Shown here piece after piece: positions 2,495-13,352 of a stretch of DNA of 13,352 nt; positions within the stretch are counted from its first letter, which is position 1, and each line of letters begins with the position of its first letter. A model generated the notes under the pieces. The model saw nothing but the letters and a program-made list of their open reading frames with translations, ran no database searches and was not told the DNA's origin. Position numbers and translations under genes: made by a program. The stretch lies in IMG/VR virus record IMGVR_UViG_2690316028_000011, one strand, 5' to 3'. The DNA is from a virus (lineage: Duplodnaviria; Heunggongvirae; Uroviricota; Caudoviricetes).

Positions 2495-2523
2495 TTGCTA
2501 TGGTTGGTTAATCATGCGTTAAT
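2495..2523 (+). promoter_or_regulatory. Candidate sigma70 promoter for cspI with long AT-rich 5' UTR
   Basis: TTGCTA (2495-2500), 17-bp spacer, GTTAAT (2518-2523; compare cspA -10 CTTAAT). Would give a 5' UTR of roughly 145 nt, typical of the cspA family. Sequence-pattern inference only. Confidence 0.3.
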
Positions 2524-2674
2524 GGTGTTCTGGTTTGTTACAAAATTATCTGAAGCAGTCATTGTTATAATTTTATTATTTGTACCTCTTGAGATTTCCT
2601 TGTTGGTTTTTCTCTCTGATATTTTTTTTCGGACCATTCTGCCCAAGGGCTAACTTCTTCAAAAGGTAATAATG

Positions 2675-2887
2675 ATGTCTAACAAAATGACTGGTTTAGT
2701 GAAATGGTTTAACCCTGAAAAAGGTTTTGGTTTCATCACGCCGAAAGATGGTAGCAAAGATGTGTTTGTCCATTTCTCAGCTATTCAGAGCAACGATTTC
2801 AAAACGTTAACTGAGAATCAGGAAGTCGAATTTGGTATTGAGAACGGACCTAAAGGCCCCGCGGCTGTTCATGTTGTGGCACTTTGA
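2675..2887 (+). CDS. cspI: Cold-shock protein, CspA family
   Basis: 70-aa product [38 protein letters not shown]... carries the RNP1 (KGFGFI) and RNP2 (VFVHF) motifs. SD AAAGG with cspA-like spacing. The six-frame ORF begins one codon earlier at 2672. Confidence 0.9.
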
Positions 2888-3086
2888 GGTAGAAAATATT
2901 ACAAACCATATTCACTTTAGATGCCCGTGTTGCCATGGTTCTCAGTATAGAACATCATCTTTTGATGTTTCTGACAGGAATCCTTTCGGGGCAAAATGTA
3001 TCTTTTGTAAATCAATGATGATTACATTTGATAATATTTCACAATACTTAAATGTTAGCCGTCTGTCGTTAGATTTAAGAAAGTGA
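2871..3086 (+). CDS. Possible small zinc-ribbon protein (71 aa) immediately downstream of and overlapping the cspI 3' end
   Basis: Product contains C-P-C-C ... (about 20 aa) ... C-I-F-C, a zinc-ribbon-like arrangement. The ORF stop at 3086 is followed 7 nt later by a strong intrinsic terminator. The RBS is weak and the ATG at 2871 is the only ATG start, so this stays low confidence. Confidence 0.25.
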
Positions 3087-4789: not shown

Positions 4790-5284
4790 ATGGATCGAGA
4801 GTTAAAAAATCTGACGCTGAATATCAGTCAACTGGCGGCATTGTCAGGTGTACATCGCCAGACTGCTGCGGCAAGGCTGCAAAATCTACCCGTTGCAGGG
4901 GGGCATGAAAGCAACCTCAAGCTTTATCGGGTGGTTGATATTGTGTCGGCATTTCTGGCATTACCACCGCCGGTTGCAGAAGGCGAAATGGACGCGCATG
5001 AGCGCAAAGCCTGGTATCAGTCTGAACGTGAGCGTCTTAAGTTCGAACAGGAAACGGCACAACTCATTCCGGCCAGTGATGTCAGACGGGAGTTTGCCAT
5101 CTGGGCAAAAGCGGTCGTGCAGGTGCTGGAGACATTACCGGATATTCTTGAACGTGACTGCGGTCTGCAGCCTGCCGCTGTGAGCCGTGTTCAGTCCATT
5201 ATTGATGATCTGCGCGATCAGATAGCCCTGCGGGTGACTGAAGCAGGTGCGGATGATGAGGAGGAATTACAGCAGGAGGAGTAA
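4790..5284 (+). CDS. Terminase small subunit (Nu1-like DNA packaging protein)
   Basis: 164-aa product with an N-terminal HTH-like segment (LNISQLAALSGVHRQTAAARL) and acidic C-terminus. Sits directly downstream of cos; its stop overlaps the start of the large terminase gene (TAATG at 5282-5286). SD GGAG upstream. Confidence 0.7.
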   Translation: MDRELKNLTLNISQLAALSGVHRQTAAARLQNLPVAGGHESNLKLYRVVDIVSAFLALPPPVAEGEMDAHERKAWYQSERERLKFEQETAQLIPASDVRREFAIWAKAVVQVLETLPDILERDCGLQPAAVSRVQSIIDDLRDQIALRVTEAGADDEEELQQEE

Positions 5285-5919
5285 TGCTGAATCAGGAAAC
5301 CGCAAAGGCAGCACGAACCGATTCAGGTTATATCCTTCGCGCACCGAGACGAATGCGGGTTGCTGATGCCGTTGCTCAGTATATGCGGGTGCCCATGGGG
5401 GCAGGGAACTCAGTCCCGTGGGATCCGCTGGTGGCACCGTATGTTATTGAGCCTATGAACTGCCTGGCCTCGCGTGAATACGACGCAGTGATATTTGTTG
5501 GCCCGGCACGAACCGGCAAGACTATCGGCCTGATTGACGGCTGGGTGATTTACAACGTGATTTGCGATCCTGCGGATATGCTGATCATTCAGATGACAGA
5601 GGAAAAAGCCCGCGAACACTCCAAAAAACGACTCGCCAGAACGTTTCGCGTCAGCCCGGAAGTGGTCAGTCGCCTGAGTCCGAACAAAAATGACAACAAC
5701 GTTTATGACAGAACATTCCTTGCTGGCAACTACCTGAAAATCGGCTGGCCGTCAGTCAATATCATGTCCTCATCAGATTATAAATGCGTCGCGCTGACGG
5801 ATTATGACCGTTTTCCGGAAGATATTGATGGCGAGGGGGATGCCTTCTCTCTTGCCTCAAAACGTACCACCACATTTATGTCCAGCGGTATGACGCTGGT
5901 GGAGAGTTCCCCCGCTGGC
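5284..5919 (+). pseudogene. Terminase large subunit (gpA-like), N-terminal fragment truncated by deletion
   Basis: Walker-A-like VIFVGPARTGKT and gpA-family ATPase-domain pattern. Homology ends about codon 205-210; the ORF then reads out of frame into gpI-derived sequence and stops at 5988. A full gpA is about 640 aa. Confidence 0.75.
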
Positions 5920-6433
5920 CATGCAGATCCCGGCGTTTCGTCAGAAACTGAGCGACGGCTGGTACCAGGTACGCATTGCCGGGCGTGATGCAGGTGAAAC
6001 CGAATTGTCTGCCCGTCTTAATGAGCCGCTGGCAAATGGTGCCGTGATCCACATCGTGCCGCGTCTGGCGGGAGCTAAAAGTGGCGGTGTGTTTCAGGTG
6101 GTGCTGGGGGCGGCGCTGATTGCGGTGGCATGGTGGAACCCTGTGGGCTGGCTGGGTGCCGCGGCTGTATCGGGCATGTATGCGGCAGGGGCCAGTATGA
6201 TCCTGGGCGGAGTGGCGCAGATGCTGGCACCGAAAGCCAGGACGCCCACGGCAGCAAGTACAGATAACGGCAAACAGAACACCTATTTCTCCTCACTGGA
6301 TAACATGGTTGCCCAGGGCAATGTTCTGCCTGTTCTGTACGGGGAAATGCGCGTGGGGTCACGCGTGGTTTCTCAGGAGATCAGCACGGCAGACGAAGGG
6401 GACGGTGGTCAGGTTGTGGTGATTGGTCGCTGA
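5912..6433 (+). pseudogene. Lambda gpI-like tail assembly protein, C-terminal fragment (fusion partner of the terminase remnant)
   Basis: From LAMQIPAFRQKLSDGWYQVRIAGRD... to ...VVSQEISTADEGDGGQVVVIGR aligns with the C-terminal roughly 175 residues of lambda gpI. The N-terminal ~45 codons are missing and a stop lies in frame just upstream at 5891. Confidence 0.8.
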
Positions 6434-6493: not shown

Positions 6494-9469
6494 ATGGGTA
6501 AAGGCAGCAGTAAGGGGCATACCCCGCGCGAAGCGAAGGACAACCTGAAATCCACGCAGCTGCTGAGTGTGATTGATGCCATCAGCGAAGGGCCGGTTGA
6601 AGGTCCGGTGGATGGATTAAAAAGCGTGCTGCTGAACAGTACGCCGGTGCTGGACAGTGAGGGGAATACCAATATATCCGGCGTCACGGTGGTGTTCCGG
6701 GCAGGTGAGCAGGAGCAGACTCCGCCGGAGGGGTTTGAATCCTCCGGCTCCGAGACGGTGCTGGGTACGGAAGTGAAATATGACACGCCGATCACCCGCA
6801 CCATTACGTCGGCAAACATCGACCGTCTGCGCTTTACCTTCGGTGTACAGGCACTGGTGGAAACCACCTCAAAGGGTGACAGGAATCCGTCGGAAGTCCG
6901 CCTGCTGGTTCAGATACAGCGTAATGGTGGCTGGGTGACGGAAAAAGACATCACCATTAAGGGCAAAACCACCTCGCAGTATCTGGCCTCGGTGGTGGTG
7001 GATAACCTGCCACCGCGCCCGTTTAATATCCGGATGCGCAGAATGACGCCGGACAGCACCACAGACCAGCTGCAGAACAAAACGCTCTGGTCGTCATACA
7101 CCGAAATCATCGATGTGAAACAGAGCTACCCGAACACGGCACTGGTCGGCGTGCAGGTGGATTCGGAGCAGTTCGGCAGCCAGCAGGTGAGCCGTAATTA
7201 TCATCTTCGCGGGCGTATTCTGCAGGTGCCGTCGAATTATAACCCGCAGACGCGGCAATACAGCGGTATCTGGGACGGAACGTTTAAACCGGCATACAGC
7301 AACAACATGGCCTGGTGTCTGTGGGATATGCTGACCCATCCACGCTACGGCATGGGGAAACGTCTTGGTGCGGCGGATGTGGACAAATGGGCGCTGTATG
7401 TCATCGGCCAGTACTGCGATCAGTCAGTACCGGACGGCTTTGGCGGCACGGAGCCGCGCATCACCTGTAATGCATACCTGACCACACAGCGCAAGGCGTG
7501 GGATGTGCTCAGTGATTTCTGCTCGGCGATGCGCTGTATGCCGGTATGGAACGGGCAGACGCTGACGTTCGTGCAGGACCGACCGTCGGATAAGGTGTGG
7601 ACCTATAACCGCAGTAATGTGGTGATGCCGGATGATGGCGCGCCGTTCCGCTACAGTTTCAGCGCCCTGAAAGACCGCCATAATGCCGTTGAGGTGAACT
7701 GGATTGACCCGGATAACGGCTGGGAGACGGCGACAGAGCTTGTTGAAGATACGCAGGCCATTGCCCGTTACGGTCGTAACGTCACGAAGATGGATGCCTT
7801 TGGCTGTACCAGCCGGGGGCAGGCGCACCGCGCCGGGCTGTGGCTGATTAAAACGGAACTGCTGGAAACGCAGACCGTGGACTTCAGCGTGGGTGCGGAA
7901 GGGCTTCGCCATGTACCGGGGGATGTCATTGAAATCTGCGATGATGACTATGCGGGTATCAGCACCGGCGGGCGCGTGCTGGCGGTGAACAGCCAGACCC
8001 GGACGCTGACGCTCGACCGTGAAATCACGCTGCCATCCTCCGGTACCACGCTGATAAGCCTGGTTGACGGTCAGGGTAATCCGGTCAGCGTGGAGGTCCA
8101 GTCCGTCACCGACGGCGTGAAGGTGAAAGTGAGCCGTGTTCCTGACGGCGTTGCAGAATACAGCGTGTGGGGGCTGAAGCTGCCGACGCTGCGCCAGCGC
8201 CTGTTCCGCTGCGTGAGTATCCGTGAGAACGATGACGGCACGTATGCCATCACCGCCGTGCAGCATGTACCTTCTGCCCGTAAGGTGAATGGTAAGGCGC
8301 TTTCAGCGGATATAACACTGACGCCGAAAGATATTGGTACGCTTAACTCAACAACAATGTCATTCAGCGGTGGTGCTGGTTGGTTCAAATTAGCAACGGT
8401 AACCATGCCACAGGCGAGTTCTGTTGTTTCAATTACGTTGATTGGTGGCGCGGGATTTAACGTGGGGTCACCTCAACAGGCAGGTATATCTGAACTTGTT
8501 TTGCGTGCAGGTAATGGTAATCCGAAGGGGATTACTGGTGCTTTATGGCAGCGCACATCGACAGGGTTTACAAATTTTGCCTGGGTCAATACATCTGGTG
8601 ATACTTACGATATTTACGTTGCAATCGGAAATTATGCGACTGGTGTAAATATTCAATGGGATTATACCAGTAATGCCAGCGTGACGATTCATACGTCACC
8701 AGCATATTCTGCTAATAAGCCGGAAGGGTTAACGGACGGTACAGTTTATTCACTCTATACGCCATCAGAGCAGTTTTATCCGCCTGGCGCACCAATCCCG
8801 TGGCCATCAGATACCGTTCCGTCTGGCTATGCCCTGATGCAGGGGCAGACTTTTGACAAATCTGCATACCCGAAACTTGCAGCCGCTTATCCGTCAGCCG
8901 TGATCCCTGATATGCGTGGCTGGACGATTAAGGGCAAACCCGCCAGTGGTCGTGCCGTATTGTCTCAGGAACAGGACGGCATTAAATCGCACACCCACAG
9001 CGCCAGCGCATCCAGTACGGATTTGGGGACGAAAAACACATCGTCGTTTGATTACGGAACCAAATCCACGAATAACACCGGGGCGCATACCCATAGTATT
9101 AGCGGGACTGCAAATAGTGCCGGTGCGCACCAACACAAGAGTTCCGGTGCATTTGGTGGCACGAACACGAGCATTTTCCCTAATGGTTATACCGCGATTT
9201 TAAATCTAAGCGCGGGGATTATGAGCACAACAAGCGGTAGTGGCCAGACTCGTAATGCAGGGAAGACATCATCAGATGGTGCTCATACCCACTCGCTGTC
9301 CGGCACTGCTGCAAGCGCAGGCGCACATGCACATACTGTCGGTATTGGTGCTCATACGCACTCCGTTGCGATTGGTTCACATGGACACACCATCACCGTT
9401 AACGCTGCTGGTAACGCGGAAAACACCGTCAAAAACATCGCATTTAACTATATTGTGAGGCTTGCATAA
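6494..9469 (+). CDS. Chimeric tail tip / tail fibre protein: lambda J-like N-terminal ~593 aa fused to a side-tail-fibre-like C-terminal domain with His-rich repeats
   Basis: N-terminus [24 protein letters not shown]... through ...[10 protein letters not shown] is near-identical to lambda host-specificity protein J. After nt ~8272 the sequence diverges, GC content drops, and the C-terminus carries repeated G-A-H-T-H-S / AHAHT / SHGHT motifs like those of Stf/T4 gp37-type fibres. Strong SD GGAG/GAGG upstream. Confidence 0.9.
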
Positions 9470-10044
9470 TGGCATTCAGAATGAGTGAACAACCACAGAC
9501 CATAAAAATTTATAATCTGCTGGCCGGAACTAATGAATTTATTGGTGAAGGTGACGCATATATTCCGCCTCATACAGGTCTGCCAGCAAACAGTACCGAT
9601 ATTGCACCGCCAGATATTCCGGCAGGCTTCGTGGCTGTTTTCAACAGTGATGAGGCATCGTGGCATCTCGTTGAAGATCATCGGGGAAAAACCGTCTATG
9701 ACGTGGCTTCCGGCGACGCGTTATTTATTTCTGAACTCGGTCCGTTACCGGAAAATGTTACCTGGTTATCGCCGGAAGGGGAGTTTCAGAAGTGGAACGG
9801 CACAGCCTGGGTGAAGGATACGGAAGCAGAAAAACTGTTCCGGATCCGGGAGGCGGAAGAAACAAAAAACAACCTGATGCAGGTAGCCAGTGAGCATATT
9901 GCGCCGCTTCAGGATGCTGCAGATCTGGAAATTGCAACGGAGGAAGAAATCTCGTTGCTGGAAGCATGGAAAAAGTATCGGGTATTGCTGAACCGTGTTG
10001 ATACGTCAACTGCACAGGATATTGAATGGCCAGCACTGCCGTAG
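9469..10044 (+). CDS. tfaQ: Tail fibre assembly protein (Tfa)
   Basis: 191-aa product [39 protein letters not shown]... matches the TfaQ/TfaR family. Start overlaps the stop of the upstream fibre gene (TAATG), indicating translational coupling. Confidence 0.9.
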
Positions 10045-10141: not shown

Positions 10142-10732
10142 TTATATGTCAGGTGTCTGAAGTTTTGCTTTGGCTCTTAAAATGGTTTGCCGCGAGGTTT
10201 TGAATTCCCGGGCAATGGCACTTATACTTACACCTGACTTAATTCGTTCGAATACCACCTGTTTCTGTTCTTCATTTAACACAGGTGGTCGACCAAAACG
10301 TTTCCCTGCGCCGCGGGCTCTTACTATCCCGGAATGAGTGCGTTCAAGTAAAAGGTCTCGTTCAAATTCAGCGACTGCTGAAATTACTTGCATCATCATT
10401 TTTCCTGTTGGACTGGTCAGGTCAATGCCACCCAATGCTAAGCAATGCACTCTGATACCTGTTTCGGTCAGTTGTTCCACTGTTTTCCTGATATCCATTG
10501 CATTACAACCAAGGCGATCCAGTTTTGTCACAATCAATTGATCACCACATTTCAGGCGAGCAAGCAACCGGTTAAAACCAGGACGCTCACTGGTTGCTGC
10601 TGAGCCGCTAATGTGTTCTTCGATTATTTGCTGAGGTTTGATTTTAAAACCTGCACTTTCGATTTCCCGGCGTTGATTTTCGGTGGTCTGATCCAGCGTT
10701 GATATCCGACAGTAAGCAAAAATTCGAGACAT
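10142..10732 (-). CDS. pinQ: Serine recombinase, DNA-invertase (Pin) family
   Basis: 196-aa product [20 protein letters not shown]... with the catalytic-serine motif (R-I-S-T-x-D-Q) and a C-terminal HTH ([18 protein letters not shown]). Matches PinQ/PinR. Convergent with tfa. Confidence 0.9.
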
Positions 10733-11049
10733 AGTGAGACTCTATTCGAAATTGGTGTTCATATCATAATGCATCTCAGAAAATAATTATGATTATTTTT
10801 GTGCATATTTGTATGTACACGTTCGAAAATAAACGAATGCGTATGCAACCCCGTAATTTTTGGTGAGACCCAAAATCGATTTTGTGAAAAATGGCTTTAA
10901 CTCGGTTTGTTTTTCGAGTTCCGGGCGGACTCAAGGAAGAAGAATAGTGTTGCGTGTTATTTTAACCAGATTTCAAGTTGTTTGGACGTGGAAAAGTGGA
11001 GCAAAATGTTGTTAAAGTGGAAAAATGATAAAAAAGTAAGTTTATTATA

Positions 11050-11283
11050 TTACATTTTACCATTTAAATTTTGGTTGTCTTTAAGAACTGATATCGCTGT
11101 TTGTAATAATTCTTTGTTATCCAGCCATGATTTTTTCTTTATGTTTCCTTCAATGTAATCAAGCAATGTTCTGGTATTAATAGGTCTTCCCTGTTTTGCT
11201 ACTTCCACTACAGCATCCCCTAGGATAATTCTTACTTCAGGAAGCTGCGCAGGGAACCACTTTAGGGTGTCTTTTGATTTCAT
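11050..11283 (-). CDS. ydfK: Small prophage protein YdfK/YnaE family (cold-shock-induced in K-12)
   Basis: 77-aa product MKSKDTLKWFPAQLPEVRIILGDAVVEVAKQGRPINTRTLLDYIEGNIKKK... The six-frame ORF extends to 11316 but the internal ATG at 11283 matches the known family start. Confidence 0.85.
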   Translation of the reverse strand: MKSKDTLKWFPAQLPEVRIILGDAVVEVAKQGRPINTRTLLDYIEGNIKKKSWLDNKELLQTAISVLKDNQNLNGKM

Positions 11284-12068
11284 GAAGATATTCCTTAAAA
11301 TATTATTGATTTTCATTGCGATATTGTATGTCTGATTCAGGATATGTTGACTTATACATCGGTTTTGTCTGGGTTATTGGATATGCCAATCCCTAATTTT
11401 ATTAGGGCATGACTAAAAATGCTGAATATGATAAGGAGAGAAGTGATTATCAGTATGCTGTTCATATAGCCTCGAATTAGTAATGTGTTATATATGATAT
11501 AGTTGACAATTTTTATCTTGGGTGTTTTTAAAGTTCGTAGATAAACATTGTCGTTTCAGGTATACAGGAATGCTAGCAGGTGGCAGCAAAAATCAGGCGG
11601 TTTATGGCGCAAGCTGAAGCGGCAACTGCAAACTATCTTATGCAGAGACTCTACACGGATTGGGTTTAAAAGTATACATAGATAACAGTTTTTATCTGAA
11701 AAAGAAAAATATCAAGGTGATATAGCCTATATGCCTTTGATGCGGAGGAATGACTGTGATGGGAGTGATGTATCTGAATAGTTGAAAAACCGCAGACACG
11801 CCTTATGCAAGAACGTGCTGCGGTTGGCTGGTAAATTTTTCGATAGTGTGAGTATTGAATGATTTCCAGCCGTTCTTGATTTTACGCATAAATCCATGAA
11901 AAAACTACTTATCTGTTGGGGAGTTTTTTTGGGGCATATATGGGACAGAAATAGGCCCCAGATAGACACTGAGATCGAACTTAGGATGCTTTTTAAAAAA
12001 TGCAACTATCTGAAAAAACCTAGAAAACGCCAAGGAAACCACAGGATGGGAAAAAACACCTGTGAATT

Positions 12069-13352
12069 ATGGATTTCCAGTTATATTCGCTCGGCGCAGC
12101 GTTAGTGTTTCATGAAATATTTTTTCCTGAATCATCAACGGCAATGGCGTTAATTCTGGCAATGGGAACCTATGGTGCAGGTTATGTGGCGCGTATTGTC
12201 GGAGCATTTATTTTCGGCAAAATGGGCGACAGAATAGGGCGTAAAAAAGTGCTCTTTATTACCATCACCATGATGGGGATCTGTACCACCTTAATTGGAG
12301 TGTTACCGACCTATGCACAGATTGGTGTTTTTGCCCCCATCTTGCTGGTGACGCTGCGTATTATTCAGGGATTGGGTGCAGGTGCGGAAATTTCCGGTGC
12401 CGGTACGATGCTGGCGGAATATGCGCCAAAAGGTAAGCGCGGAATTATCTCCTCATTTGTGGCTATGGGAACTAACTGCGGAACCTTAAGCGCAACGGCA
12501 ATCTGGGCCTTTATGTTCTTCATTCTCAGTAAAGAGGAACTGCTGGCGTGGGGATGGCGTATACCGTTCCTGGCGAGCGTTGTCGTGATGGTCTTTGCTA
12601 TCTGGTTACGTATGAATCTGAAAGAAAGCCCGGTCTTTGAGAAGGTTAACGACAGCAACCAACCGACAGCAAAACCTGCACCTGCTGGTAGCATGTTCCA
12701 GAGCAAATCCTTCTGGCTGGCAACAGGGCTGCGTTTTGGTCAGGCGGGTAACTCCGGTTTAATTCAGACTTTCCTTGCAGGCTATTTAGTACAGACGTTA
12801 TTGTTTAACAAAGCAATTCCAACAGATGCATTGATGATCAGTTCGATTCTCGGCTTTATGACCATTCCGTTCCTTGGTTGGTTATCCGATAAAATTGGTC
12901 GCCGGATCCCGTATATTATTATGAATACCTCTGCGATTGTGCTGGCGTGGCCAATGCTTTCTATCATCGTAGATAAAAGCTATGCCCCGAGCACCATTAT
13001 GGTTGCACTGATTGTGATTCATAACTGTGCGGTGCTGGGATTATTTGCTCTGGAAAACATTACCATGGCAGAAATGTTCGGCTGTAAAAACCGCTTTACC
13101 CGGATGGCTATTTCAAAAGAAATTGGTGGTCTTATCGCTTCCGGTTTTGGTCCTATCCTGGCGGGTATTTTCTGCACCATGACGGAATCCTGGTATCCGA
13201 TCGCCATTATGATCATGGCATATTCAGTAATTGGTTTAATCTCTGCGCTGAAAATGCCAGAGGTGAAAGACCGTGATTTAAGTGCGCTGGAAGACGCTGC
13301 GGAAGATCAACCGCGTGTTGTAAGAGCTGCGCAACCTTCCAGAAGTCTGTAA
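12069..13352 (+). CDS. ydfJ: MFS transporter (metabolite:H+ symporter family), N-terminally truncated at the prophage junction; likely non-functional
   Basis: 427-aa ORF with MFS signatures (GKMGDRIGRKK, multiple TM helices, WGWRIPF, LSDKIGRR). Compared with ProP-like homologues the first ~35-40 residues (first half of TM1) are absent. No convincing SD before the ATG. Stop codon coincides with the window end. Confidence 0.85.
   Translation: MDFQLYSLGAALVFHEIFFPESSTAMALILAMGTYGAGYVARIVGAFIFGKMGDRIGRKKVLFITITMMGICTTLIGVLPTYAQIGVFAPILLVTLRIIQGLGAGAEISGAGTMLAEYAPKGKRGIISSFVAMGTNCGTLSATAIWAFMFFILSKEELLAWGWRIPFLASVVVMVFAIWLRMNLKESPVFEKVNDSNQPTAKPAPAGSMFQSKSFWLATGLRFGQAGNSGLIQTFLAGYLVQTLLFNKAIPTDALMISSILGFMTIPFLGWLSDKIGRRIPYIIMNTSAIVLAWPMLSIIVDKSYAPSTIMVALIVIHNCAVLGLFALENITMAEMFGCKNRFTRMAISKEIGGLIASGFGPILAGIFCTMTESWYPIAIMIMAYSVIGLISALKMPEVKDRDLSALEDAAEDQPRVVRAAQPSRSL

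Follow-up and report, generated by a model that had tools for sequence, protein, structure and literature searches.

At the right end of the window, by which we mean the whole analysed stretch of 13,352 nucleotides, three prophage genes on the minus strand precede a transporter gene on the plus strand. The prophage genes are pinQ (10142–10732), a serine recombinase of the resolvase/invertase family with Resolvase and HTH_7 domains; ydfK (11050–11283), annotated as a cold shock protein; and ynfT (11352–11465), recognised by its translation and annotation, which encodes a small protein of 37 amino acids and is the prophage gene nearest to the junction. Table 1 of PMC6001520 gives ynfT as a protein detected with a tag and places it between ydfJ and ydfK. 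The transporter ORF occupies positions 12069–13352 of the plus strand and corresponds to codons 29–455, together with the stop codon, of YdfJ, an MFS transporter of the MHS family. The first-pass annotation had taken it to be intact over 427 codons, and both the ORF and its translation bear this out.

Deletion has reduced the window prophage to a remnant without the portal, capsid and tail-shaft genes that are found in strain C5, the best match to the right end of the window (99.8%). At 5284–6433, a 234-amino acid terminase ATPase fragment (GpA_ATPase, 5284–5988) is followed directly by a C-terminal fragment of gpI, the tail assembly protein I (5921–6433). An ORF of 991 amino acids (6494–9469, plus strand) combines gpJ-type FNIII-A_GpJ and Phage-tail_3 domains with a tail-fibre Collar domain and may be a J/side-tail-fibre fusion that arose through deletion; in relatives, gpJ, lom and the tail-fibre gene are annotated separately in the equivalent region. 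A full-length Rfam match to IS009 (RF02111, 220.9 bits; 9812–10010, plus strand) lies within the tfaQ CDS (9469–10044), and a cspA thermoregulator match (RF01766, 109.8 bits; 2517–2933, plus strand) extends over the 5' UTR and the CDS of cspI (2672–2887), a cold-shock gene of the prophage. Around the tail-fibre segment we found only two weak pairs of Pin-type inverted repeats. None of the genomes in the collection was colinear with the whole window, the best coverage being 86%.

The transporter ORF starts with MDFQLYSLGAALVFHEIFFPES (protein MDFQLYS...). In E. coli free of the prophage, ydfJ encodes 455 amino acids and lies directly after rspA-rspB. Its CDS begins 57 nt past rspB and is followed by ydfI in a derivative of E2348/69 and in 184/2aE, and a 455-residue ydfJ stands behind rspB in seven further genomes as well, although it is marked as frameshifted in the record of Nissle 1917. 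The translation of the intact gene reads MTIEKHERSTKDLVKAAVSGWLGTALEF-MDFQLYS..., with the first residue of the window ORF at Met29 and the start codon 84 nt upstream of the point that matches the ATG in the window. A comparison with the uninterrupted ydfJ of Qin-free strains, which the first-pass annotation had proposed, identified the window ORF as residues 29–455, from which it differs by a single residue (H/R near the C-terminus). The annotation would have been mistaken if homologues from prophage-free strains shared the start of this ORF, and they do not. Its claim of a truncated transporter thus stands, but the size of the loss, put at the first ~35–40 residues, does not: by the intact 455-residue allele, 28 residues are missing.

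Every PGAP-annotated lysogen record labels the remnant “incomplete; missing N-terminus”. The curated MG1655 record lists b1543 as an ordinary CDS, a 427-amino acid “putative transporter YdfJ”, and on the strength of this reference protein MDFQLYS could be read as the native start and the 455-residue form as an annotation artefact. We regard this reading as untenable. The 84 nt in question run on from rspB in 2010 genomes, the window DNA upstream of position 12063 is of phage origin and contains an in-frame stop, and the extra 28 residues align to ShiA, ProP and KgtP-type models and to positions 1–6 of TIGR00883. Frameshifts were seen in the cluster of two genomes with an uninterrupted attB. 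In the Nissle 1917 assembly NZ_CP022686.1 (L015 3001–4364), ydfJ is marked as frameshifted and is 4 nt shorter; in strain L73 (L017 4457–5810), ydfI is frameshifted. They may represent decay of the cluster without a prophage or errors of assembly.

The extent of the N-terminal loss was judged by profile coordinates, as the limits of TM1 were not sharp in a Kyte-Doolittle hydropathy plot. The remnant matches the TIGR00883 metabolite/H+ symporter model with 453.5 bits (E=6.5e-136), above the cut-off of 443.45, and Pfam MFS_1 with E=2.6e-37; the intact 455-residue protein scores 462.9 bits against TIGR00883. The remnant enters the ShiA, ProP and KgtP-type profiles only from positions 37–40 (ShiA 37, ProP 40) and TIGR00883 at position 7, whereas the intact protein reaches the former at positions 12–22 (ShiA 12, ProP 22) and the latter from position 1. 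The profile matches of the remnant are thereby ~25 N-terminal positions shorter. Entry at position 40 of the ProP profile agrees with the earlier placement of the ORF start inside TM1 of ProP-family homologues. As the family-model matches of the intact protein reach ~25 positions further, the lost segment is, to judge by these profiles, homologous family sequence that covers the cytoplasmic stretch at the N-terminus and the beginning of TM1. The remnant does not have the complete N-terminus of the MHS family (TIGR00883; TC 2.A.1.6) and is, by the same profiles, a member of it by descent, as an N-terminally truncated copy. A sequence search of the PDB for a structural relative of YdfJ gave none at E≤1e-5.

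The window stops at the stop codon of ydfJ and its own attL lies outside it, and the attachment core was defined with attL from two relatives, K-12 and C5. Alignment of both junctions, which had been suggested as the way to find the core, showed that attL, attB and attR share a sequence of the form CT(G)TGAAT(T)TATGGATTTC that corresponds to 12060/12063–12077 in the window. We place the attR core at 12060–12077 (no strand assigned) on the basis of this alignment, the megablast break points and the Qin boundary in MG1655. In its phage form the core reads CTGTGAA-TTATGGATTTC; in the host form, seen in attB and attL, it reads CT-TGAATTTATGGATTTC. The 11 bases TTATGGATTTC (12067–12077) are identical across attL, attB and attR, and the ATG of the remnant (12069–12071, Met29) sits within the core. 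A short T run is present in all five phage arms, and attL and attB have a long one. Because of this difference, strand exchange must, by sequence comparison, fall within the 11 bases, to the right of the T run.

In the window, the junction runs from phage DNA ending in ...AACACCTGTGAA-TTATGGATTTC to host DNA beginning with CAGTTATATTCGC... At attL of K-12, host DNA next to rspB extends up to ...GCGCTTGAATTTATGGATTTC and is followed by phage DNA (AAGAGTCAT...) and then by the intQ pseudogene. Strain C5 has the same attL; phage DNA takes over 38 nt away from the stop codon of the integrase gene, and the side after rspB carries an excisionase and an intact integrase of 426 amino acids (1281 nt). 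In K-12 and C5 alike, the 5' part of ydfJ is therefore where the first-pass annotation had presumed it to be, at the opposite end of the prophage, beside rspB and the integrase gene. Joined together, attL (host up to ...TGAATTTATGGATTTC) and attR rebuild attB exactly, with the core duplicated and no host sequence lost. The match to uninterrupted genomes starts only at window position ~12063 (megablast position 364 of a junction query that covered 11700–12500), and the curated Qin boundary in MG1655, 1632277, corresponds to window position 12077. The right attachment site had been expected at about 12000–12075; the core does lie in this bracket, except that it ends 2 nt beyond it, at 12077. The legend of S7 Fig in PMC8112680 gives the att of ydfJ prophages as 18 or 19 bp, and in the same paper a PCR amplicon served to sequence the attP of PPydfJ in strain 11368.

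The junction is widespread. Of 5426 complete E. coli genomes, 5424 gave a match to the query of 11700–12500; the matches fall into classes with sharply defined break points, and about one third of a ranked sample aligned only from position 364. A 200-bp query across attB, required to be covered over at least 80% of its length, found an uninterrupted site in 2010 of the 5426 genomes. The site is not uninterrupted in ~63% of the genomes, and nearly all of these break at the same nucleotide (query position 78). These figures bear on the possibility that ydfJ was truncated by a deletion or an IS-mediated rearrangement beside the prophage, with no involvement of integrase-driven insertion. In favour of such an event, the window prophage is itself rearranged, with a terminase fragment joined to tail genes, and IS elements are common in prophages of this kind. 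However, the host sequence is complete, attL and attR add up to attB with a duplicated core, the integrase adjoins attL, and the nucleotide-precise break recurs with unrelated phage arms in thousands of genomes. We consider a deletion or IS-mediated origin to have next to no probability. With attL taken from K-12 and C5, the junction has the features of an integrase-mediated attachment junction, namely a core at both ends, an attB that can be rebuilt, an integrase beside attL and a conserved phage arm.

The phage-side attachment arm, which we take to be the P arm of attP, occupies 11930–12059 on the plus strand, as defined by a five-way alignment with break points at query positions 230/231. 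These ~130 bp upstream of the core, starting from TGGGGCATATATGGG at ~11930, are homologous among five prophages with different cargo, in a comparison that took in K-12 Qin, GPEC1356, the O157 strain 86-24 (with NleG/DinI genes) and the mouse strain A8. The 8-mer TGGGGCAT / TTGGGGCA at 11930–11937 appears twice more in the P' arm beside int, as found by searching for 8-mers shared with the P' arm of C5; by this recurrence it is a candidate arm-type site of the integrase. Further upstream, an imperfect inverted repeat at 11786–11826 (CCGCAGACACG...CGTGCTGCGG) is followed by a T run on the minus strand and looks like a leftward-facing terminator in the phage arm. It has no annotated gene upstream and is absent from the output of the consensus scan. 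Between ynfT and the core, the arm (~600 bp) has no match to an Rfam family. Two ORFs in this region, 11896–12105 (plus strand) and 11727–12005 (minus strand), have no Pfam match and were regarded as spurious.

Taken together, these results make us highly confident that a Qin/PPydfJ-type lambdoid phage integrated into the chromosomal ydfJ gene and that the window contains attR, the remnant being a probable pseudogene, without function or at best poorly expressed. Integration would have occurred by site-specific recombination, catalysed by a tyrosine integrase, into codons ~26–31 of ydfJ, the transporter gene of the rspA-rspB-ydfJ-ydfI sugar-acid cluster. The order in the window is the phage P arm (~11930–12059), the core (12060–12077) and host ydfJ from Met29 onwards. 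Codons 1–28 would have stayed behind at attL with the ribosome-binding site and the rspA-side promoter, outside the window and on the far side of the integrase gene. The claim that a prophage had integrated into ydfJ is thus upheld by the shared core and by an attB rebuilt from attL (K-12 and C5) and attR.

The DNA that now precedes Met29 offers little for its translation. An in-frame TGA at 12063–12065 (plus strand; ...DGKKHL*IMDFQLYS) precedes the ATG by two codons; it arises from the phage form of the core, which has one T fewer, and excludes a longer N-terminus encoded by phage DNA. A well-placed Shine-Dalgarno sequence was not found at the remnant ATG; the nearest AGGA (12043–12046) and GGGA (12048–12051) runs are 17–22 nt upstream, in keeping with the first-pass remark that the ORF has no convincing one. 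A simple scan detected no promoter-like site on the plus strand between 11301 and 12300, which leaves room for weak or non-sigma-70 promoters and for read-through, and in a promoter and terminator scan of 11000–12300 the counts were no higher than in shuffled sequence, with no plus-strand site ahead of the ATG. As possible drivers of the remnant, we also looked in the phage arm for the ydfI and ydfK promoter hexamers, which Shimada et al. assigned to the ydfI/ydfK spacer; a promoter in the arm was rejected on these grounds, as both sets fall inside the ydfJ remnant and none in the arm. Because the N-terminal segment with the start of TM1, a Shine-Dalgarno sequence and a promoter-like site are all absent and upstream starts are blocked by the TGA, we infer that the remnant is a pseudogene, either without function or poorly expressed at best.

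The alternative is that the 427-codon ORF is a working gene, transcribed from a phage-arm promoter or by read-through, started at Met29 and producing a functional, altered or dominant-negative transporter without half of TM1. The 1284-nt ORF is intact in all 12 lysogens sampled, it is a CDS in the MG1655 annotation, and the piN/piS ratio in lysogens is 0.021 vs 0.023 in eight intact genes. Furthermore, ydfJ is among the genes differentially expressed after DicC induction (PMC11430063), hence some ydfJ transcript exists. Against this stand the lost N-terminal positions, which are conserved in the family, the lack of a Shine-Dalgarno sequence within 5–10 nt of the ATG and of a plus-strand promoter-like site in 11301–12300, and the origin of the low piN/piS ratio. 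The K-12 remnant shows 0 differences over 1284 nt from the intact ydfJ of 184/2aE and DLI.6n (L003, L018), which indicates that most ydfJ polymorphism predates integration. The ydfJ alleles of lysogens and non-lysogens are interleaved, and as alleles are common to both groups the low ratio in lysogens says nothing about the function of the remnant. The changes private to single lysogens comprise 4 nonsynonymous (D54G, A421V, M209I and L261P) and 3 synonymous substitutions; they lean towards relaxed constraint, although so few changes are not decisive. The survival of 427 intact codons is best explained by recent or recurrent integration together with precise excision, and selection on the truncated form is not needed. 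A working gene that starts at Met29 is thus very improbable, and we retain the pseudogene reading.

The other part of the split gene is also annotated in K-12. In MG1655, ynfP (b4534; NC_000913.3 1652728–1652838, equivalent to L023:22229–22339 on the minus strand and L004:4835–4945) encodes 36 amino acids, MTIEKHERSTKDLVKAAVSGWLGTALEFMDFKSHAC, which consist of 31 host codons of ydfJ and 5 phage codons at attL. VanOrsdel et al. (PMC6001520, Table 1) include ynfP in their list of small proteins that were seen with an epitope tag; the entry in that table carries no mention of a split transporter gene. Prophages at this site could act as a reversible switch of rspAB-ydfJ-ydfI, a form of “active lysogeny” in which precise excision of integrase-proficient elements would restore the transporter and the integrated state would give YnfP and possibly the Met29 remnant, each with an activity of its own. 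The interleaved ydfJ alleles and the ~63% of genomes without an uninterrupted attB would fit frequent switching without proving it, and we hold such a switch to be highly unlikely.

The insertion separates the ydfJ remnant and, as far as can be deduced, ydfI from rspAB and their promoter. The cluster of rspA, rspB and ydfI has reportedly been assigned to L-gulonate catabolism, by Wichelecki et al. in 2014 in strain CFT073. After the split of the operon, transcription of ydfI may be kept up by a predicted sigma-70 promoter, ATGCCA-17-TTTAAG, which the table of Shimada et al. (PMC3946193) gives for ydfI and whose hexamers we located at 13254–13282 on the plus strand, within the 3'-terminal part of the ydfJ remnant. 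A second pair of hexamers, TTCCCA-16-GATAAT, is assigned in the same source to a promoter directed at ydfK. It maps to 12471–12444 on the minus strand, antisense within the ydfJ remnant, ~400 nt from the junction and outside the region upstream of ydfK.

Three known systems are close to the one described here. K-12 Qin has the same integration site to the nucleotide, the same core and the same 427-codon remnant, and PMC6379469 states that it cuts 28 codons off YdfJ, with loss of the promoter. Its right arm (ynfT, ydfK, pinQ and tfaQ) is that of the window, with 98.8% identity over 11700–12500, but its interior has nohA and a short stfQ where the window has the terminase large-subunit and gpI fragments and the 991-residue hybrid. 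The label “Qin” used in the first-pass annotation therefore fits the right arm and fails for the gene content from the terminase to the tail fibre. Judged by gene content, the window element is a different deletion derivative and is best called Qin-like. The lambda-like PPydfJ prophages of STEC (O157:H7, O26:H11 and others; Nakamura et al. 2021, PMC8112680) use the same attB in ydfJ, with an att of 18–19 bp, and the ~130-bp arm beside the core is common to the window and the prophage of O157 strain 86-24. They differ in carrying NleG/DinI-type cargo at the attR end, where the window has pinQ-ydfK-ynfT, and according to PMC8112680 they often occur in tandem clusters. Rac is likewise a cryptic lambdoid prophage of K-12 inserted into the 5' end of a host gene, ttcA, and its right-end genes ynaE and ynaM are paralogues of ydfK and ynfT (PMC6379469, PMC6001520). 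Unlike the phage at ydfJ, it supplies a variant N-terminus for TtcA that leaves the gene complete (PMC6379469); on the phage side of the window there is an in-frame stop and no replacement.

The event at this junction is real and common, and it has been described before; the finding is correct but ordinary. The PGAP label for a missing N-terminus, the Qin coordinates in MG1655, PMC6379469 and PMC8112680 already have it on record, and beyond correct annotation its importance is little. Annotators should record the remnant as the 3' portion of a split gene, with an apparent start codon that comes from the att core, and YnfP as the 5' portion. The junction explains why YdfJ has 427 residues in K-12-type genomes as opposed to the ancestral 455, and why the rspAB-ydfJ-ydfI cluster is split in about two thirds of sequenced E. 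coli. As the literature already recognises, ydfJ is a heavily used hot spot for the integration of lambdoid phages, which is of relevance to the typing of STEC prophages.
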